The notes under the pieces: generated by a model
The model's database searches: none
What the model was told of the DNA's origin: nothing
What the model saw: only the letters and a program-made list of their open reading frames with translations
Origin: a virus
Length of the DNA: 13,577 nt
Virus genome (UHGV): UHGV-0354376
Reading direction: 5' to 3' (one strand)
Translations under genes and position numbers: made by a program
Shown here: positions 27-12,656 of the stretch, in pieces
How positions within the stretch are numbered: the stretch's first letter is position 1
How the letters are laid out: every line of letters begins with the position of its first letter

Positions 27-1340
27 TTAACTTACTGATTTTAATAATCCTCCCGTACTGTTCTCGTGGCTATGGGGCATCAATGGGGCAAAATATGCCA
101 GCTTCTGATTCAGCATTGCGATCTGCTCTGCGCTGCTGTCAGCCATCCATGCACCGTAAACATTGAACACCATCTGCGCGCTCGCATGCCCCATCTGACT
201 GGCAATAAAACTCGGGTTTGCACCAGCAGATAATGACCAGCACGCATAGGTATGTCGTGACTGGTACGCCTTTCTGTGTCTAATCCCCGCGCGCTTTAGT
301 GCAGCTTCCCATGAGTCGCCTACTGAATCGACCCGGTAGATAAATCCGACCTGCTTACTGCGTCTGACCACATGCGGGTTAAAGACGAATGTACACTCAT
401 GGGTCACCGAACGACCGTACTCACGTAACTGCACTTCAATATGATATTGCCTGCCCAGCCTTGTCATTTCAGCCTGATTTTTCAGGATACTGATTGCGGG
501 CTGGATAAGATGCACCACTCGATCTGTACTTGCCTCGGTTTTCGGTAGAGTGAACTCACCAAGTTTCGTATAATTACGCCTGACGGTAATTGTTCCCGCT
601 TTCAGGTCGATATCTTCCCAGGCCAGGGAGACCAGTTCCCCGTGACGCATTCCTGTGTACACTGCTAATGACCACAGGTTTTTCGTCTGCTGATGCCGGC
701 ATGCATCTATCAGGCGAATAAATTCATCACGAGAAAGAGGATCTGGTTCTGCCCGGGCTTTTTTCAGAGGCTTAATTCCCTCGAATGGGTTCACCTCTAA
801 GTAACCGTGATCCGCAGCAAACTGAAACATTCCGGCCATTGTCGTCATGTAATAGTTCACAGTAACAACGCTTCGCCCTTTTGCCGGGGATTTGTTTTTC
901 GTCGGATTCTGGTAACCAATTAGCAAATCTTTCCTGAGATACAGCAATTCCTCTTTGGTTACTGCTGACGCTAGGCGATTACCTCCGATCCTCGGCACCA
1001 TATTCCTTGCGACAGACTCATAGCGATTGAATGCGTTCGCGCAGATTTCCATCCGTTTCAGATCCAGCCATTTTTCTTCAAGTTCTTTCACTGTAATGTC
1101 TTTTTTACTTACACCAAAAGCCTTGAGGTTAGGGGAGTCAGGAAACTGGGTTGCATAATCAAAGGTTCCTGTGCGGATGGCAAAACATACTGATGTCCGC
1201 AGTTCCCCGGCTATCTTCCTGTTCTTAGCGGTGTCAGGGACACCAAGACTTTCCCTGACACGCTTACCTTTAAAATTAAACCAGATGCGTAAAGTGCCAC
1301 CGTGGTTTTCGACGCCTGTTGGATATGTGGCTTTATCCAT
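27..1340 (-). CDS. int: Phage tyrosine integrase (lambda Int family site-specific recombinase)
   Basis: 437 aa ORF with the C-terminal catalytic signature of tyrosine recombinases (RHGEL...SRHTYACW...NVYGAW, i.e. Arg, His-x-x-Arg and Tyr nucleophile region) and an N-terminal arm-binding-like region. It sits at the edge of the prophage, directly downstream of an excisionase-like gene. Confidence 0.9.
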   Translation of the reverse strand: MDKATYPTGVENHGGTLRIWFNFKGKRVRESLGVPDTAKNRKIAGELRTSVCFAIRTGTFDYATQFPDSPNLKAFGVSKKDITVKELEEKWLDLKRMEICANAFNRYESVARNMVPRIGGNRLASAVTKEELLYLRKDLLIGYQNPTKNKSPAKGRSVVTVNYYMTTMAGMFQFAADHGYLEVNPFEGIKPLKKARAEPDPLSRDEFIRLIDACRHQQTKNLWSLAVYTGMRHGELVSLAWEDIDLKAGTITVRRNYTKLGEFTLPKTEASTDRVVHLIQPAISILKNQAEMTRLGRQYHIEVQLREYGRSVTHECTFVFNPHVVRRSKQVGFIYRVDSVGDSWEAALKRAGIRHRKAYQSRHTYACWSLSAGANPSFIASQMGHASAQMVFNVYGAWMADSSAEQIAMLNQKLAYFAPLMPHSHENSTGGLLKSVS

Positions 1341-4438: not shown

Positions 4439-5149
4439 CTACAGTTTATTGTAAGCTATTGATTCATGGAGTAGAGCTTTACCCATGATATACAGTTGTT
4501 CCTGATTTTCTTCAGTTATATACCAGTCTTTGTACACTGGATTATCGGACAGCACTGCAAGCTGCAAGCCCTGCATTTGTAATCGCTTCACGTGGAAGTG
4601 TTGTCCGAAAACGAACGCATAAACACCGTCCACCTTGAAATTTCTTATCGAAATATCGAAAAACAACCTGTCACCAGACTGGATGGTTGGGCACATGCTG
4701 TCGCCATCTACAGTCATTACTTTAACGTCATCCTGAGAACGATTCCCGAAGAGTGAACGAGCGTGCTCAGTGGTGAACTCAATAGCGTGTAGAACCTCAA
4801 CAAACTCAGAAATCATGAAAGACCCTGGACCTGCACTCACAGTAAGATCGAGAACTTCTACACGATAAGTGTCGATATTGCGGGCGGGTACATCAATATC
4901 CATATTTGAGGTTGGGCCAAGACCATCCAACCATCCTCTGCTGATTTTCAAAGCATCTTCGATCTGCCGAGCCGCCTGTTCACCAATATTCCGCTTATTA
5001 GGTTTACCAACAGGGTAAAGCATCCGAGAGACAACAGTCGGATCAAGCCCTGCATTTTCAGCAAACTCTTTCTGGGTTTTATAGCGAGTTACCAACTCCT
5101 GAAGTTTGAGGCGTCGTAACTCGAAGATGTCAGGCGATTCAGTTTTCAT
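4439..5149 (-). CDS. CI-like prophage repressor (N-terminal HTH, C-terminal S24 LexA-like autopeptidase domain)
   Basis: 236 aa ORF with an N-terminal HTH-like region (QKEFAENAGLDPTVVSRM) and a C-terminal S24 peptidase signature (GDSM serine motif and a downstream Lys in HVKRL). It is divergent from a Cro-like gene across a 99 bp AT-rich region. The near-absence of an SD upstream of the ATG would fit a leaderless pRM-type transcript. Confidence 0.9.
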   Translation of the reverse strand: MKTESPDIFELRRLKLQELVTRYKTQKEFAENAGLDPTVVSRMLYPVGKPNKRNIGEQAARQIEDALKISRGWLDGLGPTSNMDIDVPARNIDTYRVEVLDLTVSAGPGSFMISEFVEVLHAIEFTTEHARSLFGNRSQDDVKVMTVDGDSMCPTIQSGDRLFFDISIRNFKVDGVYAFVFGQHFHVKRLQMQGLQLAVLSDNPVYKDWYITEENQEQLYIMGKALLHESIAYNKL

Positions 5150-5224: not shown

Positions 5225-5248
5225 TAATTTCCAAACATAGGAGGCGTG

Positions 5249-5491
5249 ATGGAAACGTTAAGAAATTACCTAAACGCTTTGTCGCTCGAAAAACAGAGAG
5301 AATTTGCAGCACGATGCGAAACCTCTCTTGAGTACCTGCGTAAAGCCATTAGCAAAAAGCAAAAGTTGGGAGCTGCTCTATCTGTTTCTATCGAAACACA
5401 ATCTGGCGGCTCAGTTAGTAGAAAAAATCTTCACCCGGATGATTGGGAAAAGATTTGGCCTGAACTGGAGCATAAAAAAACAGCGGCATGA
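5249..5491 (+). CDS. Cro-like / YdaS-family HTH regulator
   Basis: 80 aa ORF divergent from cI with an AGGAGG RBS 6 nt upstream. The C-terminal motif GGSVSRKNLHPDDW resembles the YdaS-type Cro-like family as I recall it. The ATG at 5249 is preferred over the GTG at 5246 listed in the ORF track. Confidence 0.8.
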   Translation: METLRNYLNALSLEKQREFAARCETSLEYLRKAISKKQKLGAALSVSIETQSGGSVSRKNLHPDDWEKIWPELEHKKTAA

Positions 5492-5519
5492 AAGTAACCA
5501 CAGAATTAAGGGGTTAACC

Positions 5520-6071
5520 GTGGGTAACGAACCAATCTGGAAAGTTGAACGTCAGCCAGTCTGGCTGGTGGTAGCGATTAAAAAAACGATTACCGATCTG
5601 CCTGGTGGATATGCCGAGGCGGCGGAATGGTTGGGGGTAACAGAGAACGCGCTGTTTAACCGTCTTCGTGTAGATGGCGACCAGATTTTCCCTATGGGAT
5701 GGGCGATGGTGCTACAGAAAGCCGCTGGCGTTAGCTACATAGCTGATGCGTTTTCTCGTCAAACAGATAACGGGATTCATATCCCTGGCGCAGCACCAGA
5801 AACAGAGAACGAAGAGATTGGCTTAAAGCTGGCTGAGCTGGTGGGCAGGCTTGGTGACTTGGTTAACGCATATCGTCGATACATCGATGATGGTGTGGTT
5901 GATAAAGGGGAATGGGACAGTCTGAACGAAATCGCCTATCAGTTCCGGGTAACGCTTATGACGTTTCTGAACCTGATTTCTCGAGTTTATTGCCTTCCAG
6001 AAAAGAGTGACGCCCGCGAGTGTGCAGCTCCGGGCGCCTTGGCGAACAACTCTTCGAGTATGGAGAAATAA
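5520..6071 (+). CDS. CII-like / YdaT-like regulatory protein with a putative HTH
   Basis: The ORF track runs from 5304, but a GTG at 5520 has AAGGGG 6 nt upstream and lies 29 nt after the cro stop. A putative HTH (AEAAEWLGVTENALFNRL) is present. Its position right after cro matches cII/ydaT-type genes; family assignment is tentative. Confidence 0.5.
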   Translation: MGNEPIWKVERQPVWLVVAIKKTITDLPGGYAEAAEWLGVTENALFNRLRVDGDQIFPMGWAMVLQKAAGVSYIADAFSRQTDNGIHIPGAAPETENEEIGLKLAELVGRLGDLVNAYRRYIDDGVVDKGEWDSLNEIAYQFRVTLMTFLNLISRVYCLPEKSDARECAAPGALANNSSSMEK

Positions 6072-6243: not shown

Positions 6244-6471
6244 TTGCGCGAACTTAACCGAAGGTTCAAAGACCACCGCGGAGTGCAAGTCCGTGTTATC
6301 CGCTGGGAGCCAGAAACACAGCGCGTTATCTATCTGCGTGATGGCTACCCACACGAATGCTTCAGCCCACTTGAGCAGTTCCGACGGAAATTCAGGGAAA
6401 TGAATAAATCGAGTAGTGTAAGCATTGAGAATCACTACCTAAATCAACCTGAAGGAAAAGACCATGACTGA
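6244..6471 (+). CDS. Hypothetical small protein (about 62-75 aa); start uncertain (TTG 6244 or GTG 6283)
   Basis: Protein-like composition (VRVIRWEPETQRVIYLRDGYPHECFSPLEQFRRKF). Its stop overlaps the ATG of the next gene (ATGACTGA). GGAGG lies 12 nt upstream of the TTG. It competes with an alternative frame at 6077-6403. Confidence 0.3.
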   Translation: MRELNRRFKDHRGVQVRVIRWEPETQRVIYLRDGYPHECFSPLEQFRRKFREMNKSSSVSIENHYLNQPEGKDHD

Positions 6472-6760
6472 AGCCGATATCGTATTTGATTACAAATTTA
6501 ACAGCCCATTACATCGTTTAATCATGTTGTTTATCCAAGTAAGCGGAAGCGGTGATGGGGGTAAAGAAAAGCTTATTTCAGATAAGAGATTTACAGACAT
6601 ATGCTGTTGCAGCTCAGCAGATTTTATAAGCGCTATCAATTACCTGACCGAAAACGGCTTTCTTTTGAGAAAAAATTACGGGATGCAGTTCGGTGAGGCT
6701 ACCAGCGGTTATGTCATTACTGTGCCGGATTGGTTAAGGAAGGAACCATGGGAACATTGA
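6464..6760 (+). CDS. Hypothetical protein (98 aa), AT-rich gene
   Basis: ATG with an AAGGAAAAG RBS. Its stop overlaps the start region of the replication gene. Codon usage is noticeably more AT-rich than neighbouring genes (TTA, ATA, AGA codons). A possible winged-helix-like segment (FISAINYLTENGFLLRK) is present. Confidence 0.55.
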   Translation: MTEADIVFDYKFNSPLHRLIMLFIQVSGSGDGGKEKLISDKRFTDICCCSSADFISAINYLTENGFLLRKNYGMQFGEATSGYVITVPDWLRKEPWEH

Positions 6761-7722
6761 TTCAGTTACTTGATCGTCCAATTGCTTACAACCCGGCTTT
6801 TGCCAAGCTGAGAGTTGGCAAAGTTAAAGCTGGCCCGGTTGCGGCTGTTTTTCTTTCGCAGATGGTCTACTGGCATAACCGTATGGATGGCGGCTGGATG
6901 TATAAGACCCAGGCAGATATTGCCAGCGAGACTGCATTAACCCGTGATGAACAGGAAACGGCTCGCAAACGTCTGATACAGCTTGGCGTTCTGGAAGAAG
7001 ATCGCCGTGGTGTCCCAGCAACGATGCACTACCGCATTAATCCTGAACGCCTGGAAGCGCTGCTGCTCGAAACTACGCAGTCAGTGAAGAAGGCCGCACC
7101 TCAGAACAAAACCAGATTGCGGAACATCCAGAATGTGGAAATGCCGCAATCTGGATTGGTGCAGTCCCGCAAACTAGATTGCGGTGATTCCACAAACAAG
7201 GATGTGGATACCCCGCAAACAAGTATGGGACAACCCAACGAACAAGCCTGCGGGGATCCCACAAACTTTCATACAGGAGATTACACAGAGAATACTCAGG
7301 AGAGTACACAGGATAAAAAAACTTATTGTCCGGTTGCGGCGCAACCAGACCCTGAAGTTGTGATTACCGACCAGGCAATTTTGGTTCTGACCCATTTGAA
7401 CCAGATCAGCGGATCCAGGTATCAGAAATCCAAAACATCCCTGGAGAATATCCGCGCCCGACTGCGTGAGGGATACAGCGTTGCAGACCTGCAACTGGTT
7501 ATCGACCTGAAGCATGAGCACTGGCACGAGAACGACGAGCAGTACCAGTACATGCGCCCGGAAACGCTGTTCGGCCCGAAGAAATTCGAGAGCTATCTGC
7601 AAAGCGCTACCCGCTGGGAGCAGAAGGGACGGCCTAAACGCGCTGACTGGGGGGCGAAAAAGCGCGATGTGATGACTTTTGGTCCGGTTGATACAACGAT
7701 TCCTGCGGGGTTCAGAGGATGA
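6748..7722 (+). CDS. Phage replication initiation protein (O-like; N-terminal winged-helix domain, low-complexity linker, conserved phage C-terminal domain)
   Basis: The ATG at 6748 is preceded by AAGGAAGG (the ORF track starts at 6730). The C-terminal region (ILVLTHLNQISGSRYQKSKTSLENIRARLREGYSVADLQLVIDLKHEHW...) resembles, from memory, the conserved phage replication-protein C-terminal domain. The gene contains an internal iteron-like repeat cluster. Confidence 0.75.
   Translation: MGTLIQLLDRPIAYNPAFAKLRVGKVKAGPVAAVFLSQMVYWHNRMDGGWMYKTQADIASETALTRDEQETARKRLIQLGVLEEDRRGVPATMHYRINPERLEALLLETTQSVKKAAPQNKTRLRNIQNVEMPQSGLVQSRKLDCGDSTNKDVDTPQTSMGQPNEQACGDPTNFHTGDYTENTQESTQDKKTYCPVAAQPDPEVVITDQAILVLTHLNQISGSRYQKSKTSLENIRARLREGYSVADLQLVIDLKHEHWHENDEQYQYMRPETLFGPKKFESYLQSATRWEQKGRPKRADWGAKKRDVMTFGPVDTTIPAGFRG
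7114..7266. repeat. Iteron-like repeat cluster inside the replication gene (candidate phage origin)
   Basis: At least seven copies of an 8-9 bp motif in both orientations: AGATTGCGG at 7114-7122, its exact reverse complement CCGCAATCT at 7144-7152, the perfect inverted repeat CCGCAA-N6-TTGCGG at 7167-7184, CCGCAAAC again at about 7213, and CCACAAAC at about 7191 and 7259. A short A-rich tract follows (about 7313-7321). Analogous to the lambda ori iterons within gene O. Confidence 0.45.
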
Positions 7723-8600
7723 CGTTAAACAAATATTGCCAGGCGCTGGCGGCACTACGTAGCCATCCAGCCCACGAATTGAAAGAAGTTGGTGATCAGT
7801 GGCGGACACCGGATCTGCTTTTCTGGGGTATCAACGCGCTATTTGGGCCATTAGTTCTGGACTTGTTTGCTGACGACGACAACGCGAAGTGCCCGGCATG
7901 GTACACCGCCGAAGATAATGCGCTGACGCAGGACTGGTCTGAACGTCTTACAGAACTGGGTGGCGCTGGTTATGGCAACCCACCGTATAGCCGTTCGCAG
8001 TATCACGAGAAACAGGCGATCACCGGCATGACGCACATCATGAACTACGCAGCAACCCAGCGCGAAAAGGGCGGGCGTTATGTATTTCTGATAAAAGCTG
8101 CGCCGAGCGAAACGTGGTGGCCGGAAGATGCCGATCACATCGTATTCATCCGTGGGCGCATTGGGTTCGATCTGCCTGTGTGGTTTATACCTGCTGACGA
8201 AAAACAGAAGCCCACCAGCGCGTTTTTTGCCGGTGCCATAGCTGTATTCGATAAGTCATGGCGGGGTGAGCGGTTCAGCTATATCAACCGCACAGAACTG
8301 GAGGAAAAAGGGCGGGCATTTATGGCTTTGGCTCAATTCGCCGTTGGTAAAGAGCAAACAATCGCAATGCAGGCAGCCAGGGAACCAGCAGCAACACCGG
8401 AAGCTGAGTCACGTATCTGGCCTCTCGAGGTTGGTCTGGTGTTCAACCAGGTGGAAGGCGTTGACGTATTGAGTGAGGCTCAGCAGAACAAGCTGAAAGC
8501 CAACATCAATCAACTCTGGCTGGAACGAACGGCCACCAGCGAAATCATCACAATTGCGCGTGGTCTTGTCGGCAGCATGCAGGGGGTAACCCATGCGTGA
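7719..8600 (+). CDS. Phage DNA N6-adenine methyltransferase (Dam family)
   Basis: 293 aa ORF with the N6-adenine MTase catalytic motif NPPY (GYGNPPYSRS) and N-terminal conserved residues (WRTPDLLF, DLFADDDN) as in phage Dam-family enzymes. Start and stop overlap the neighbouring genes (ATGA). Confidence 0.9.
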   Translation: MTLNKYCQALAALRSHPAHELKEVGDQWRTPDLLFWGINALFGPLVLDLFADDDNAKCPAWYTAEDNALTQDWSERLTELGGAGYGNPPYSRSQYHEKQAITGMTHIMNYAATQREKGGRYVFLIKAAPSETWWPEDADHIVFIRGRIGFDLPVWFIPADEKQKPTSAFFAGAIAVFDKSWRGERFSYINRTELEEKGRAFMALAQFAVGKEQTIAMQAAREPAATPEAESRIWPLEVGLVFNQVEGVDVLSEAQQNKLKANINQLWLERTATSEIITIARGLVGSMQGVTHA

Positions 8601-10590
8601 GATTATCGTTGATAACTTTGCTGGTGGCGGTGGCGCATCAACGGGTATTGAACTGGCAATAGGGCGCAGCGTGGATATTGCGATCAACCACGACGAAAAC
8701 GCCATTGCGATGCACAAGACGAACCACCCGGACACACTGCATTATTGTGAATCCGTATTTGACGTGGATCCGGTAGCCGCCACCGGCGGCAATCCTGTTG
8801 GCCTGGCATGGTTTAGCCCGGACTGCCGACACTTCTCAAAGGCCAAAGGCGCAAAGCCTGTGAAAAAAGAGATACGAGGTCTGGCCTGGATTGTTCTGCG
8901 ATGGGCACTGGCGAAGCGACCGCGCGTGATGATGCTGGAGAACGTGGAAGAGTTCAAAACCTGGGGACCGTTAATTGACATCCCGCCTAAACCTGATTTG
9001 TCGGAAGCCCTTATAGGGGATTTTATTGGCCCAGTTTACCCTGGCAATAGTCGCCCAGACCCTGCCCGCGCTGGCGAAACATTCAATGCTTTTGTCGGTA
9101 TGCTTTCCACTGGCATTCCTGCCGATCACTCGGCACTGTCAGAGGTTTGTGAGTTTCTGTCTATTGAAAGAGGTAGCGAGCAGGCGCAACAGCTGGTGGA
9201 TGGGCTTGGATATGATGTTGATTATCGCGAACTACGCGCGTGTGATTACGGCGCGCCGACGATCCGCAAACGCTTCTTCATGGTTATGCGCTGCGATGGC
9301 TGCCCAATCCAGTGGCCTGCTGTTACCCATGGGGATCCTAAGTCTCTGGAGGTGCAGAGCGGCAGGCTGATGCCATGGCGTACCGCTGCGGAATGTATCG
9401 ACTGGAATGTTCCGGCTCTGTCCATCTTCGACCGCAAAAAACCGCTGGCAGAGAACACTCTGAAGCGGATCGCACGCGGCATACAGCGCTTTGTTATCGA
9501 AAGTGCGTCGCCGTTTATCGTGAAGTGCAACCACACGAGCTCAAAAAATGCGTATGACGCTTTTCGCGGACAGTCACTGAATGAGCCATTACAGACCATT
9601 ACTAAAAAACTCGGCTACGCGTTAGCCGTTCCACACCTTACAAAATTCCGCACTGGCGCAACCGGGCAGCCCGTTACCGAACCTGTTCCGACGGTAACCG
9701 CTGGCACGTCAAAACGCCCGGGCGGGAACGGGCATGCTCTCGGGATTGTTGAGGCTGCATTGACACCATTCCTGGCGGGTAATGGTGGTAGTGAATACCA
9801 GGCTAAACCGCGCCCGCTGAATAAACCTGCTCATACCATTCTGAAGCAATCCCGAGCCTGTCTTGTTGCGCCAGTGATAGCCCGCCAGTTTGGGGCCAGC
9901 GTCGGCCACCGTGCAGACGAACCGAGCGCAACCATCACCGCTGGTGGTGGCGGTAAATCTCAACTGGTAACGCCTACGCTGATCCAGATGGGTTATGGCG
10001 AACGACCTGGACAAGAACCGCGTGTGCTGCGGCTGGATAACCCGCTGGGGACCGTTACTGCAGGCGGAAATAAATTTGCGACGGTGAGCGCATTCCTGGC
10101 GAAACACTACGGCGGTAACTATACGGGGCCGGGTGTCAGTATGGATGAACCCGCGCATTCAGTGACCACTGTCGACCATCATGCGGTAGTTGCCTCTCAT
10201 CTGGTGAAACTGCGTGGAACATGCCGCGACGGGCAACGCCTTGATGTGCCAATGCCAACAATCACTGCTGGTGGCCAACACGTGGGTGAGGTACGCACAT
10301 TTCTCGAGACGTATTGCGGGGAAAGTGACGATGAATGGCTGGTAACGATCGATGGGGTTAAATACCAGATCGTTGATATCGGAATGCGCATGTTGCAGCC
10401 GCATGAACTCTACAAAGCGCAGGGCTTCCCGGATGGATACGTTATTGATCAGGACTACCGTGGAAATCGCTATGCAAAAGATAAGCAGGTAGCCCGCTGC
10501 GGTAATGCGGTACCACCACCATTCGCCCGGGCGCTGGTTGAGGCAAATCTTCCGGAACTGTGTGCAGTGCAACAGCAGGAGGTGGCATGA
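8593..10590 (+). CDS. DNA cytosine-5 methyltransferase, large (665 aa), with an extended variable/target-recognition region
   Basis: C5-MTase motifs are visible: motif I FAGGGG, the catalytic Cys region SPDCRHFS, motif VI MLENVEEF (ENV), and a motif VIII-like PTIRKRFFMV. AGGGGG RBS 6 nt upstream. Stop overlaps the rusA start. Confidence 0.85.
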   Translation: MREIIVDNFAGGGGASTGIELAIGRSVDIAINHDENAIAMHKTNHPDTLHYCESVFDVDPVAATGGNPVGLAWFSPDCRHFSKAKGAKPVKKEIRGLAWIVLRWALAKRPRVMMLENVEEFKTWGPLIDIPPKPDLSEALIGDFIGPVYPGNSRPDPARAGETFNAFVGMLSTGIPADHSALSEVCEFLSIERGSEQAQQLVDGLGYDVDYRELRACDYGAPTIRKRFFMVMRCDGCPIQWPAVTHGDPKSLEVQSGRLMPWRTAAECIDWNVPALSIFDRKKPLAENTLKRIARGIQRFVIESASPFIVKCNHTSSKNAYDAFRGQSLNEPLQTITKKLGYALAVPHLTKFRTGATGQPVTEPVPTVTAGTSKRPGGNGHALGIVEAALTPFLAGNGGSEYQAKPRPLNKPAHTILKQSRACLVAPVIARQFGASVGHRADEPSATITAGGGGKSQLVTPTLIQMGYGERPGQEPRVLRLDNPLGTVTAGGNKFATVSAFLAKHYGGNYTGPGVSMDEPAHSVTTVDHHAVVASHLVKLRGTCRDGQRLDVPMPTITAGGQHVGEVRTFLETYCGESDDEWLVTIDGVKYQIVDIGMRMLQPHELYKAQGFPDGYVIDQDYRGNRYAKDKQVARCGNAVPPPFARALVEANLPELCAVQQQEVA

Positions 10591-10986: not shown

Positions 10987-11670
10987 ATGAGCCAATTAGC
11001 AACAACAGCATTAACCATGTCCAGCAGCGATATTGCTGAGCTGGTGGAATCACGACATGACCATGTTAAACGGTCCATTGAACGCCTGGCAGAGCGCGGT
11101 GTTATTGAACTCCCCCCAATGGGGGAAGTTAAAAATCACCTCAATCAGTCGGTATCGGTTTATCTGATAGGGAAGCGGGACAGTTATATCGTTGTCGCGC
11201 AGCTGTCGCCGGAGTTTACCGCGCGTCTGGTTGATCGCTGGCAGGAGCTTGAGCAGGCACAGCAGCAGACGATTCCTCAATCATTCTCTGAAGCCCTACG
11301 TCTTGCAGCTGACCTTGCAGAACAAAAACAGCAGTTGACTAACGAACTGGCTGCCGCGGCGCCGAAGGTAGCGTTTGTTGATCGGTACTGTACAGCCAGT
11401 GGGTCAATGTCATTCCGCCAGGTGGCAAAACTGCTTAAGGCCAAAGAGCCAGATCTGCGGTTATTCCTCCTTGAGAACGACATCATGTATCGCCTTGGCG
11501 GAACGATGACTCCACGGCATCAGCATATTGATGCGGGCCGTTTTGAAGTGAAAACCGGCACATCCGTGACCTCAAATCATGCATTCAGCCAGGCACGTTT
11601 CACGGCGAAAGGCGTGCGCTGGATTGGTGGACTGTGGGCAGAACACATTGTCAGGGGGCAGGTCGCGTGA
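10987..11670 (+). CDS. Phage antirepressor-like protein (Rha-like N-terminal region, KilAC/Ant-like C-terminal domain)
   Basis: The ATG at 10987 with GGAG 6 nt upstream gives 227 aa. The N-terminal region (SSSDIAELVESRHDHVKRSIERL) resembles Rha-type regulators and the C-terminal region (FRQVAKLL...MYRLGG) the antirepressor KilAC-type domain. Family calls are from memory. Confidence 0.7.
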   Translation: MSQLATTALTMSSSDIAELVESRHDHVKRSIERLAERGVIELPPMGEVKNHLNQSVSVYLIGKRDSYIVVAQLSPEFTARLVDRWQELEQAQQQTIPQSFSEALRLAADLAEQKQQLTNELAAAAPKVAFVDRYCTASGSMSFRQVAKLLKAKEPDLRLFLLENDIMYRLGGTMTPRHQHIDAGRFEVKTGTSVTSNHAFSQARFTAKGVRWIGGLWAEHIVRGQVA

Positions 11671-12656
11671 GGGCTTTGTTAACTCCTGAAGTAGCCCATC
11701 GTATGGGGATTGTGTTGTTCCGTCCCGGTGCGGAACTGATGCACATCTTCATGCGCGGTCGCGTTCTGCTAGAGCCTGAACCAGAAGAAATGGCGTCATT
11801 CAGTACCGGGGCTGTTCCTGCAGCCATTCAGCCGCTGGCTGAGGATCCGGTAATGCGGCAGGTCTTCGAGAATGAGCGGGTTATTCATCGCGCCGGTGGG
11901 CTGGCTTCCCTCGAGCAGTGGCTGAGTTCAAGATTTGAATGCCAGTGGCCACATTCATCGTGGCATGACAAGAACTTCACAACAATGCGGCACCCACCAG
12001 GAAGCATTCATCTGTGCTGGCATTGCGATCACACTTTGTCCGGGCAGCATACTAAGCAGCTTGCAGGTATAGCGGCAGGAAACTTGGTATCCTGGATTCT
12101 GGAAGTTATTCGTCGCGATTCTGGTTTTCCCGAGTCGCATGTACTGACGTTGCCGGAACTGTGCTGGTGGATGGTCAGAAACGACCTGGCTGATGTTATT
12201 CCGGAAAGCGTTGCGCACAAAGGGCTGCGCCTTCCGGATGAGAACATCCGCTCTGTCATGAGGGAAAGCGACATTGTGCCTTCAGCGTCTGCAACCAGCC
12301 TCGTGCAGGAGAAGGCGAAGAAGATCCTCACGCTCTCTGTTGATCCGGAGTCTCCAGAATCTTTCATGCTCAGACCAAAACGTCGTCGCTGGATAAATGA
12401 GACGTACACCCGCTGGGTTAAAACACAGCCCTGTGAGTGTTGCCGACGGCCAGCAGACGACCCCCACCACATGATTGGCCACGGGCAGGGTGGAATGGGT
12501 ACAAAAGCACACGACCTGTTTGTGATACCGCTGTGCAGAGCACATCACAACGAGTTGCATGCTGATCCCGTGGCATTTGAAGCGAAATACGATGACCAAT
12601 TGGTGTTGGTTTTTCGAGTTATAGATCGAGCGCTGGCAATTGGCGTGCTGGCATAA
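11634..12656 (+). CDS. DUF968-like prophage protein with a C-terminal Cys/His cluster; start uncertain
   Basis: Long ORF in the position usually occupied by DUF968/YdfU-like genes upstream of Q in enterobacterial lambdoid prophages. C-terminal cluster CECCRRPADDPHHM...CRAHHNELH. Candidate starts are the GTG at 11634, the GTG at 11667 (overlapping the upstream stop) and the ATG at 11703. Confidence 0.6.
   Translation: MGRTHCQGAGRVRALLTPEVAHRMGIVLFRPGAELMHIFMRGRVLLEPEPEEMASFSTGAVPAAIQPLAEDPVMRQVFENERVIHRAGGLASLEQWLSSRFECQWPHSSWHDKNFTTMRHPPGSIHLCWHCDHTLSGQHTKQLAGIAAGNLVSWILEVIRRDSGFPESHVLTLPELCWWMVRNDLADVIPESVAHKGLRLPDENIRSVMRESDIVPSASATSLVQEKAKKILTLSVDPESPESFMLRPKRRRWINETYTRWVKTQPCECCRRPADDPHHMIGHGQGGMGTKAHDLFVIPLCRAHHNELHADPVAFEAKYDDQLVLVFRVIDRALAIGVLA

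Follow-up and report, generated by a model that had tools for sequence, protein, structure and literature searches.

The replication origin of bacteriophage lambda is built from iterons, an AT-rich region and a palindrome, all inside the gene of its own initiator, O (PMC6022878, PMC7466680). As annotated, lambda has four iterons of the form TCCCTC-N5-GAGGGA, the first lying 348 nucleotides (nt) from the start of gene O, with spacings of 20, 24, and 23 base pairs (bp). The Shiga-toxin phages 933W and P27 have six lambda-like iterons, the outer of which bind more weakly yet are needed for replication (PMC7466680). Here we describe a locus on the same plan in the virus genome UHGV-0354376, in a stretch of 13,577 nt that was analyzed as a whole (“the window”): its 324-residue, O-like replication initiator, encoded at 6748–7722 on the plus strand, very probably has a lambda-type (theta) replication origin embedded in its own gene. 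A preliminary description had named the repeats in this gene as a probable lambda-like origin, and that proposal is supported, at the level of sequence, by conservation of the repeats as DNA, by their co-variation with the N-terminal domain (N-domain) of the initiator, and by natural hybrids with lambda O-type modules.

Similar arrangements are found elsewhere. In RepA_N replicons, the iterated repeats of the origin lie in the middle portion of rep itself, and Bacillus phage SPP1 has an origin-binding protein, G38P, whose binding repeats and adjacent AT-rich region (oriL) lie inside its own gene. The RepA_N initiators (the RepA proteins of pSK41 and pTZ2162; 4pql, 4pt7, and 5kbj) are the best, if weak, structural matches to the model of our N-domain; they differ in being Gram-positive plasmid elements from other hosts, without sequence similarity. 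The window initiator may be likened to G38P through a shared DnaD-like “replisome organizer” theme, which PHROG 1701 and 6493 assign to it; SPP1, however, has a loader and a helicase of its own (G39P and G40P), and the window encodes no such pair.

The initiator, identified from its translation, PHROG and Pfam matches and an AlphaFold model, is composed of a winged-helix N-domain (residues 1–111), a disordered linker (residues 112–196) and a Phg_2220_C/DnaD-like domain, structured from about residue 200, of which residues 213–285 match Pfam PF09524 (Phg_2220_C). It is 100% identical to the Citrobacter freundii protein P0021. In PHROG, its matches are to families 428 (“replication initiation protein,” 1e-67) and 9773 (“replication initiation O-like,” 1e-52). 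The repeat array begins 369 nt into the gene and occupies 7117–7264, between the winged-helix and Phg_2220_C domains and within the linker-coding nucleotides 7081–7335. As had been proposed, the cluster thus coincides with the linker, for which AlphaFold gives a predicted local distance difference test score (pLDDT) below 50 and no secondary structure. The real repeat unit is a 17-bp imperfect dyad, TTGYGG-N5-CCRCAA, with 12 specified positions, and the origin element extends to the right of the array as far as about 7350. From left to right, its parts (with the gene offsets at which the exact core recurs in relatives) are:

7117–7133: iteron A, TTGCGG-AACAT-CCAGAA, 11 of 12 specified positions
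7133–7149: iteron B, ATGTGG-AAATG-CCGCAA, 11 of 12, with an exact core match; offset +383/+386 in nearly all class-I relatives (defined below)
7156–7172: iteron C, TTGGTG-CAGTC-CCGCAA, 10 of 12, left half-site degenerate, in the 23-bp register
7179–7195: iteron D, TTGCGG-TGATT-CCACAA, 12 of 12; offset +429/+432
7202–7218: iteron E, ATGTGG-ATACC-CCGCAA, 11 of 12; offset +452/+455
7225–7241: register position F, ATGGGA-CAACC-CAACGA, 7 of 12, decayed but in register
7248–7264: iteron G, CTGCGG-GGATC-CCACAA, 11 of 12, nearest the AT-rich block; offset +498/+501
7265–7327: AT-rich, purine-skewed block directly right of the iterons, a putative DNA-unwinding element
7328–7350: GC-rich palindrome GTCCGGTTGCG-G-CGCAACCAGAC, ten pairs with one mismatch, at the junction of the N-domain/origin and C-terminal modules

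The likeness to the lambda origin extends to most of these parts. Both origins lie mid-gene in the part of the initiator gene that encodes an interdomain linker; both have imperfect dyad iterons of 6-5-6 geometry (TCCCTC-N5-GAGGGA in lambda, TTGYGG-N5-CCRCAA in the window), about two helical turns apart (20–24 bp in lambda, 23 bp in the window), the first iteron starting about 350–370 nt into the gene; and in both the iterons are flanked on the right first by a purine-skewed, AT-rich block and then by a palindrome rich in GC. In both, the N-domain and iterons also make up one exchangeable module and the C-terminal domain (C-domain) another, and natural hybrids of the window's module with lambda-type C-domains exist. 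The half-site sequence is different, as is the number of units (5–7 in the window, four in lambda); the AT-rich block is less AT-rich and is built of conserved 11/12-mers; the N-domain is without BLASTP or PF04492 similarity to O; and the C-domain is of the Phg_2220_C/DnaD-like kind rather than P-binding, with a P-like loader absent from the window. The origins of 933W and P27 likewise share the plan and have more than four iterons, but theirs are lambda's own O protein and iteron, whereas the window has another DNA-binding domain and another iteron. By analogy with these phages, the degenerate outer and intermediate units of the window may behave like the weakly binding outer iterons.

The repeats themselves were first noticed as an 8-mer, CCGCAAWC, said to recur at least five times in either orientation. 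There are indeed five copies in 7115–7220, in both orientations, out of seven in the window, where about 1.3 would be expected and where seven were reached in 0 of 200 shuffles. The two additional CCACAAAC variants lie at 7190 and 7259; the 9-bp inverted pair AGATTGCGG (7114–7122) and CCGCAATCT (7144–7152) is exact and even reaches 11 bp (7112–7122 with 7144–7154); and the palindrome CCGCAA-N6-TTGCGG is present at 7167–7184. The 8-mer does not, however, hold up as the repeat unit, being one half of the 17-bp dyad, which recurs at a 23-bp pitch. Within 7117–7264 there are five good copies of the dyad, one half-degenerate (C) and one degenerate (F). The 15-bp core, TGYGG-N5-CCRCA, is matched exactly four times in the window, each time within 7134–7263, compared with about 0.09 expected per dinucleotide shuffle. 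Self-identity at lag 23, an unbiased measure that agrees with the dyad array, is 0.537 for 7110–7320, versus 0.246 ± 0.031 (maximum 0.324) for 244 other segments of the window, and the harmonics at lags 46 and 69 both reach 0.44. The suggested repeat analysis recovers a 23-bp tandem array, and the origin element as a whole reaches past the region first noted to about 7350. The other computational checks suggested at the outset likewise came out in favor of the origin reading.

From B to G, each unit follows the one before at a distance of exactly 23 bp, while unit A lies 16 bp left of B, outside this register. A and B together form a 25-nt imperfect palindrome (7106–7160); of the good copies, A shows the least conservation, and in Escherichia coli C5 it is rearranged. 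A TGGTG…CCGCAA unit resembling iteron C is repeated in L045, one of the related loci. Position F is probably not bound by the initiator in this window; in three relatives (L003, L037, and L050) an exact site is found there (+475 or +466). A GATC, part of GGATCC at 7254–7259, lies inside the central spacer of iteron G, and the phage encodes its own Dam methylase.

Scans with the N-domain gave 51 viral contigs and 15 genome contigs, in addition to phage and E. coli records. In every locus whose N-domain is at least 80% identical to that of the window, exact cores are found only inside the initiator gene, at the offsets listed above and sometimes at +475; in about 50 related loci, the motif is confined to this gene within the roughly 5 kb compared in each. 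Relatives with the TTGYGG-N5-CCRCAA motif are referred to as class I. Among 45 distinct class-I sequences, all close relatives, conservation in the N-domain is 0.93 at codon positions 1 and 2 and falls to 0.595 at position 3, while in the iteron half-sites it is 0.88 at positions 1 and 2 and 0.906 at position 3. Since the third positions of the half-sites are as conserved as the first two, and those of the N-domain are not, selection acts on the DNA. The central N5 is less conserved (0.79 at positions 1 and 2, 0.705 at position 3); selection is weakest on the 5-bp center of the dyad, as expected for the binding sites of a dimer. The preliminary description had asked whether related prophages conserve the repeats as DNA or as protein, and both the third positions and the fixed offsets favor DNA. 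As modeled, the protein tolerates a linker with a sequence set by the needs of the origin.

A second class of relatives (L041–L043, L046, L047, L062, and L063), with N-domains 75–79% identical to that of the window, is without the TTGYGG-N5-CCRCAA motif. At the same place in the gene, these have five or six head-to-tail 23-bp iterons, TGGCGG-N5-CCGCCA, so that class I differs from class II by one base pair changed per half-site; the classes never mix. Just three residues of the folded N-domain separate the two classes: K20/Q, Q55/R, and A56/E,T. Residues 55–56 begin helix 55–62 of the helix-turn-helix in the model. Four further lineages pair Gln55 with half-sites of the GCAA type, and Arg55 occurs with other half-sites; L052 is ambiguous. 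Glutamine commonly contacts adenine, and arginine guanine, in protein–DNA complexes, and the pattern at residue 55 suggestively fits these contacts.

Co-variation of iteron and N-domain, a feature of lambdoid origins, is found not only between these classes but also in distant homologues and with an unrelated N-domain. Homologues at 43–52% identity have their own 22–24-bp iterons directly after the part of the gene encoding the N-domain. In the locus L071, an unrelated HTH_36 N-domain is joined to a C-domain that is 100% identical from CPVAAQPD onward, except for two residues near the C-terminus; L071 shares the palindrome and the downstream methyltransferases of the window but carries different, 15-bp repeats. 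These repeats, four or five copies of TCAAAATCTGACrCA at 2804–2906 of L071, lie at the equivalent place. Since 15 is a multiple of 3 they are also a peptide repeat (SKSDA, SKFDT), and alone cannot separate selection on DNA from selection on protein.

The AT-rich block to the right of the array contains the GC minimum of the gene, 35–37.5% at 7260–7319, with a strong skew of A over T. It includes three tandem 11/12-mers, GAGAnTACnCAG, at 7277–7288, 7289–7299, and 7300–7311, which may equivalently be read as two 15-mers, CAGGAGAkTACACAG, 23 bp apart, continuing the register of the iterons (7272–7317). The A-rich tract noticed at the outset, ATAAAAAAA, is indeed present at 7313–7321, and a run of seven A (7315–7321) ends the block; the region likely to melt easily is, however, the whole of 7265–7327 rather than this 9-bp tract. 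Across the 45 class-I sequences, 7265–7312 is conserved at 0.92 at all codon positions (0.922 at position 3). This 47-bp block goes with the N-domain/iteron module, whichever the iteron class and whichever of at least three kinds of C-terminal module is joined to it; L071 lacks it. The sequence-specific elements of bacterial oriC, its 13-mers and DnaA-trios, provide a model for how such a block might be read, beyond passive melting. Two further ideas are tentative and, even taken together, rather doubtful: that 7265–7312 is a sequence-specific element read by a single-strand-binding activity of the initiator or by a host replication factor, or that a Gln55-to-Arg change acts as a retargeting switch.

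The palindrome at 7328–7350 stands at the junction of the two modules, the homology breakpoints between which fall at about 7322–7350. Across 20 distinct junction sequences its stem is 86.5% paired, versus 18–40% when the partners are slid. The outer pairs are fixed by the pattern used to select the sequences, and therefore only the inner four pairs are informative; one of these is GC in 13 sequences, CG in 5, and UA in 1. In its counterparts in L001–L058 the encoded residues vary (AAQ, PAE, or SAK) but the symmetry stays intact, and such compensating changes indicate that it is symmetry, and not identity of sequence, that is selected. An identical palindrome is found in L071 (2964–2986), where the N-domain is unrelated. 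The palindrome may mark where melting stops, fold into a hairpin when the DNA is single-stranded, or act as a recombination junction. A minus-strand intrinsic terminator (the hairpin read from 7350 to 7328 and then AATAAGTTTTTTT) was considered as its conserved function and rejected, the T-run not being kept in relatives: in Salmonella phage 118970_sal3, the hairpin is followed by just TTTT after a G-rich stretch.

The natural hybrids are the strongest argument that this N-domain and its repeats do the job done in lambda by the O N-domain and its iterons. The combinations found are:

Window and close relatives: downstream module with the Phg_2220_C domain, without a loader gene
L027, L042, and L035: C-domain homologous to that of lambda O (E values 1e-41, 1e-28, and 1e-26, respectively)
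L027 and L042: lambda's palindrome also present, nearly verbatim
L035: a P-like helicase loader follows (phrog_109, 5e-64)
E. coli C5: a third kind of C-domain, then DnaC-like and DnaB-like genes

A phage-encoded loader next to the initiator, usual for a lambdoid origin, is thus found in L035 and E. coli C5 and is lacking in the window. The relation between the type of C-domain and the downstream gene is not a clean one: in L042, which has a lambda-type C-domain, the gene that follows is matched by PHROG 630, a family without an assigned function, and in L027 a small “activator” gene follows the initiator.

The N-domain is modeled by AlphaFold with a pLDDT of 86 as a helix-helix-helix-wing fold with a C-terminal helix. 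The best Foldseek matches in the PDB are to iteron-bound RepA_N plasmid initiators (5kbj, 4pql, and 4pt7), generic winged-helix regulators and the DnaD N-domain; the RepA_N matches have E values of about 5e-3 at 10–13% identity, and the generic regulators score about equally. A sequence search of the PDB gave nothing significant, and the 115-residue N-domain as a query against the protein database found 20 proteins, mostly truncated; the full-length initiator was the more productive query, with roughly 1,500 homologues. The sole link between the initiator and lambda O are two PHROG profiles matched by both N-domains at overlapping profile positions, PHROG 678 (window 6.8e-11, lambda 1.7e-35) and PHROG 345 (window 9.6e-8, lambda 5.2e-17). 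Direct homology to lambda O was rejected on the negative BLASTP and Pfam results given below. The initiator would thus work like lambda O at its origin while not being filed in the Pfam family of lambda O.

Taken as a lambda-type origin, the locus has its site mid-gene between two domains, dyad iterons two turns apart and an AT-rich right flank, and a mechanism can be proposed. Dimers of the N-terminal winged-helix domain would bind the 17-bp dyad iterons, about two helical turns (23 bp) apart, and the resulting nucleoprotein complex would melt 7265–7327, helped by the negative supercoiling of the DNA and by transcription that runs rightward from the promoter on the cro side. The C-terminal DnaD-like (Phg_2220_C) domain might then bring in the replicative helicase; as the window encodes neither a helicase nor a loader, this would presumably be that of the host DnaB system. 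The GC-rich palindrome (7328–7350) would bound the melted region and could also serve as the junction for module exchange between phages.

Several observations weigh against this interpretation. The loci compared are related prophages rather than independent samples, and the 17-bp dyad pattern was set after inspection of the data, for which reason it is the comparative tests in relatives that carry weight. The block called AT-rich has 35–37.5% GC in a gene of about 50% GC and is less extreme than that of lambda. The recognition helix (residues 66–79) is the same in both iteron classes, and the residues proposed to determine specificity are therefore peripheral. BLASTP finds no similarity between the initiator and lambda O (E = 0.6), and residues 1–200 give no Pfam match to PF04492 (Phage_rep_O) at E ≤ 0.01, a family that lambda O matches at 5.7e-36; the Foldseek matches are weak (E values of 5e-3 to 3e-2, template modeling score about 0.5). 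Binding of the initiator to the iterons and replication from this site are both read from sequence, and the helicase recruitment step is guesswork, since the window is without a helicase or loader gene.

Other explanations of the repeats are all very unlikely, in differing degrees. The least improbable is that they are operators, through which the initiator, as a transcription regulator, would control its own gene or a neighboring promoter: homologues in Salmonella phage 118970_sal3 and E. coli C5 are annotated “transcriptional activator” or “DNA-binding protein,” and the winged-helix fold is common to regulators of the MarR, PadR, and CodY types. The sites, however, lie mid-gene and not at a promoter, a sigma-70 promoter scan of 6300–7800 having found a single weak site (6498), as many as chance would give; a conserved AT-rich block comes next to them, in a gene that occupies the place of lambda gene O; the PHROG families put the protein among replication initiators; and in nature the module is joined to lambda O C-domains, in one case with a P-like loader, or lies ahead of DnaC/DnaB-like genes. 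Less probable again is that the region is mainly a recombination junction, in which the 47-bp block and the palindrome provide linker homology for module swaps without a direct role in initiation. That the module breakpoints fall at 7322–7350, and that N-domains unrelated to each other are linked to one and the same C-domain through an identical palindrome, fits such a junction, but the iteron array, its 23-bp period and its co-variation with the N-domain are left unexplained, and the compensating changes in the palindrome suggest that symmetry, not identity, is under selection. A junction role of the right-hand part can in any case coexist with an origin and does not replace it.

We give still less credence to a cluster of host DnaA boxes, suggested by the resemblance of the CCACA core to TTATCCACA and by two one-mismatch matches that overlap iterons B (7134–7142, ATTTCCACA) and E (7203–7211, GTATCCACA). 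Matches to TTWTNCACA with at most one mismatch number 18 in the window compared with 23.5 expected, and are thus not enriched; the two overlapping the iterons are not kept in relatives (for example, TGTGGATAC becomes TGTGGAAAC in 118970_sal3 and F1055); and the positions that are conserved make up the CCGCAA/TTGCGG dyad, which is no DnaA box and changes with the N-domain of the phage. The least likely explanation, and one that the data contradict, is that the repeats only reflect a peptide motif repeated in the linker, or its low-complexity coding, without a role as DNA. The cluster does lie in a disordered linker and two of its copies encode similar peptides (CGDSTN and CGDPTN). But 23 is no multiple of 3, and therefore successive copies are read in different frames (PQ, SRK, STN, PTN), copies occur in both orientations, the half-sites are conserved at third codon positions as at the other two, unlike the N-domain, and linker residues change in such a way as to keep the symmetry of the DNA, as in the palindrome (AAQ to PAE or SAK).

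What is new in the lambda-type origin described here is the class of iteron and the unannotated initiator N-domain, for which there is no Pfam family; the design is classical lambda and no new principle. In the literature searched, neither this origin nor this N-domain is described. The locus nevertheless defines, to the base, the origin parts of a group of prophages that is widespread in enterobacteria (Citrobacter, Salmonella, E. coli, Klebsiella, Serratia, and others), in which public records label the initiator “hypothetical,” “transcriptional activator,” or “conserved phage C-terminal domain protein.” The two iteron classes are a natural pair for studying how origin specificity, and hence replication incompatibility between co-resident prophages, evolves. 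If the switch at residue 55 is true, a single Gln55-to-Arg change would retarget the initiator from CCGCAA to CCGCCA, a simple way of creating new types of origin incompatibility. The hybrids with lambda-type, DnaC/DnaB-type, and loader-less C-modules reveal where replication modules get cut and rejoined.

The window as a whole is the early region of a lambdoid prophage, in which the cI-like repressor, cro-like, cII-like, and initiator genes follow lambda's own order. Its principal genes are:

27–1340, minus strand: integrase
4439–5149, minus strand: cI-like S24 repressor
5246–5491, plus strand: cro-like gene
about 5304–6071, plus strand: cII-like gene
6464–6760, plus strand: 98-residue open reading frame
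6748–7722, plus strand: replication initiator
7719–8600, plus strand: Dam methyltransferase, 293 residues
8593–10590, plus strand: C5 cytosine methyltransferase, 665 residues
10948–11670, plus strand: antirepressor
11634–12656, plus strand: HNH protein

Pfam and PHROG find no helicase or helicase-loader gene among them; instead, the Dam and C5 methyltransferase genes (7719–10590) lie directly 3′ of the initiator gene, with overlapping stop and start codons, and the pair is also found in L071 and L072. On the other side, the 98-residue open reading frame overlaps the start of the initiator gene by 13 nt and weakly matches PHROG 4617 (“replication initiation protein,” 6e-10); it was rejected as a conserved partner, as it has no similarity to the 74-residue open reading frame upstream of the initiator in phage F1055. 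Rfam finds no known RNA family anywhere in the window.

Some records of relatives deserve comment. In 118970_sal3 (KU927493.2; L001, 3989–5302), the homologue is annotated as one 437-residue “putative transcriptional activator,” whereas in F1055 the same DNA encodes a 324-residue initiator and a separate 157-residue PHROG 1324 protein; the 437-residue gene therefore looks like a fusion or a frameshift. The 118970_sal3 record is 77,375 bp long, compared with 39,464 bp in the genome announcement (PMC5043551). In Candidatus Symbiopectobacterium endolongispinus (L059, 2501–2914), the initiator is cut short at 137 residues while three exact iteron cores remain, which suggests a decaying prophage. 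In the window itself, a 288-residue open reading frame on the minus strand (2070–2936), between the integrase and the immunity region, has a dATP/dGTP pyrophosphohydrolase domain (PF04447, 6e-42).

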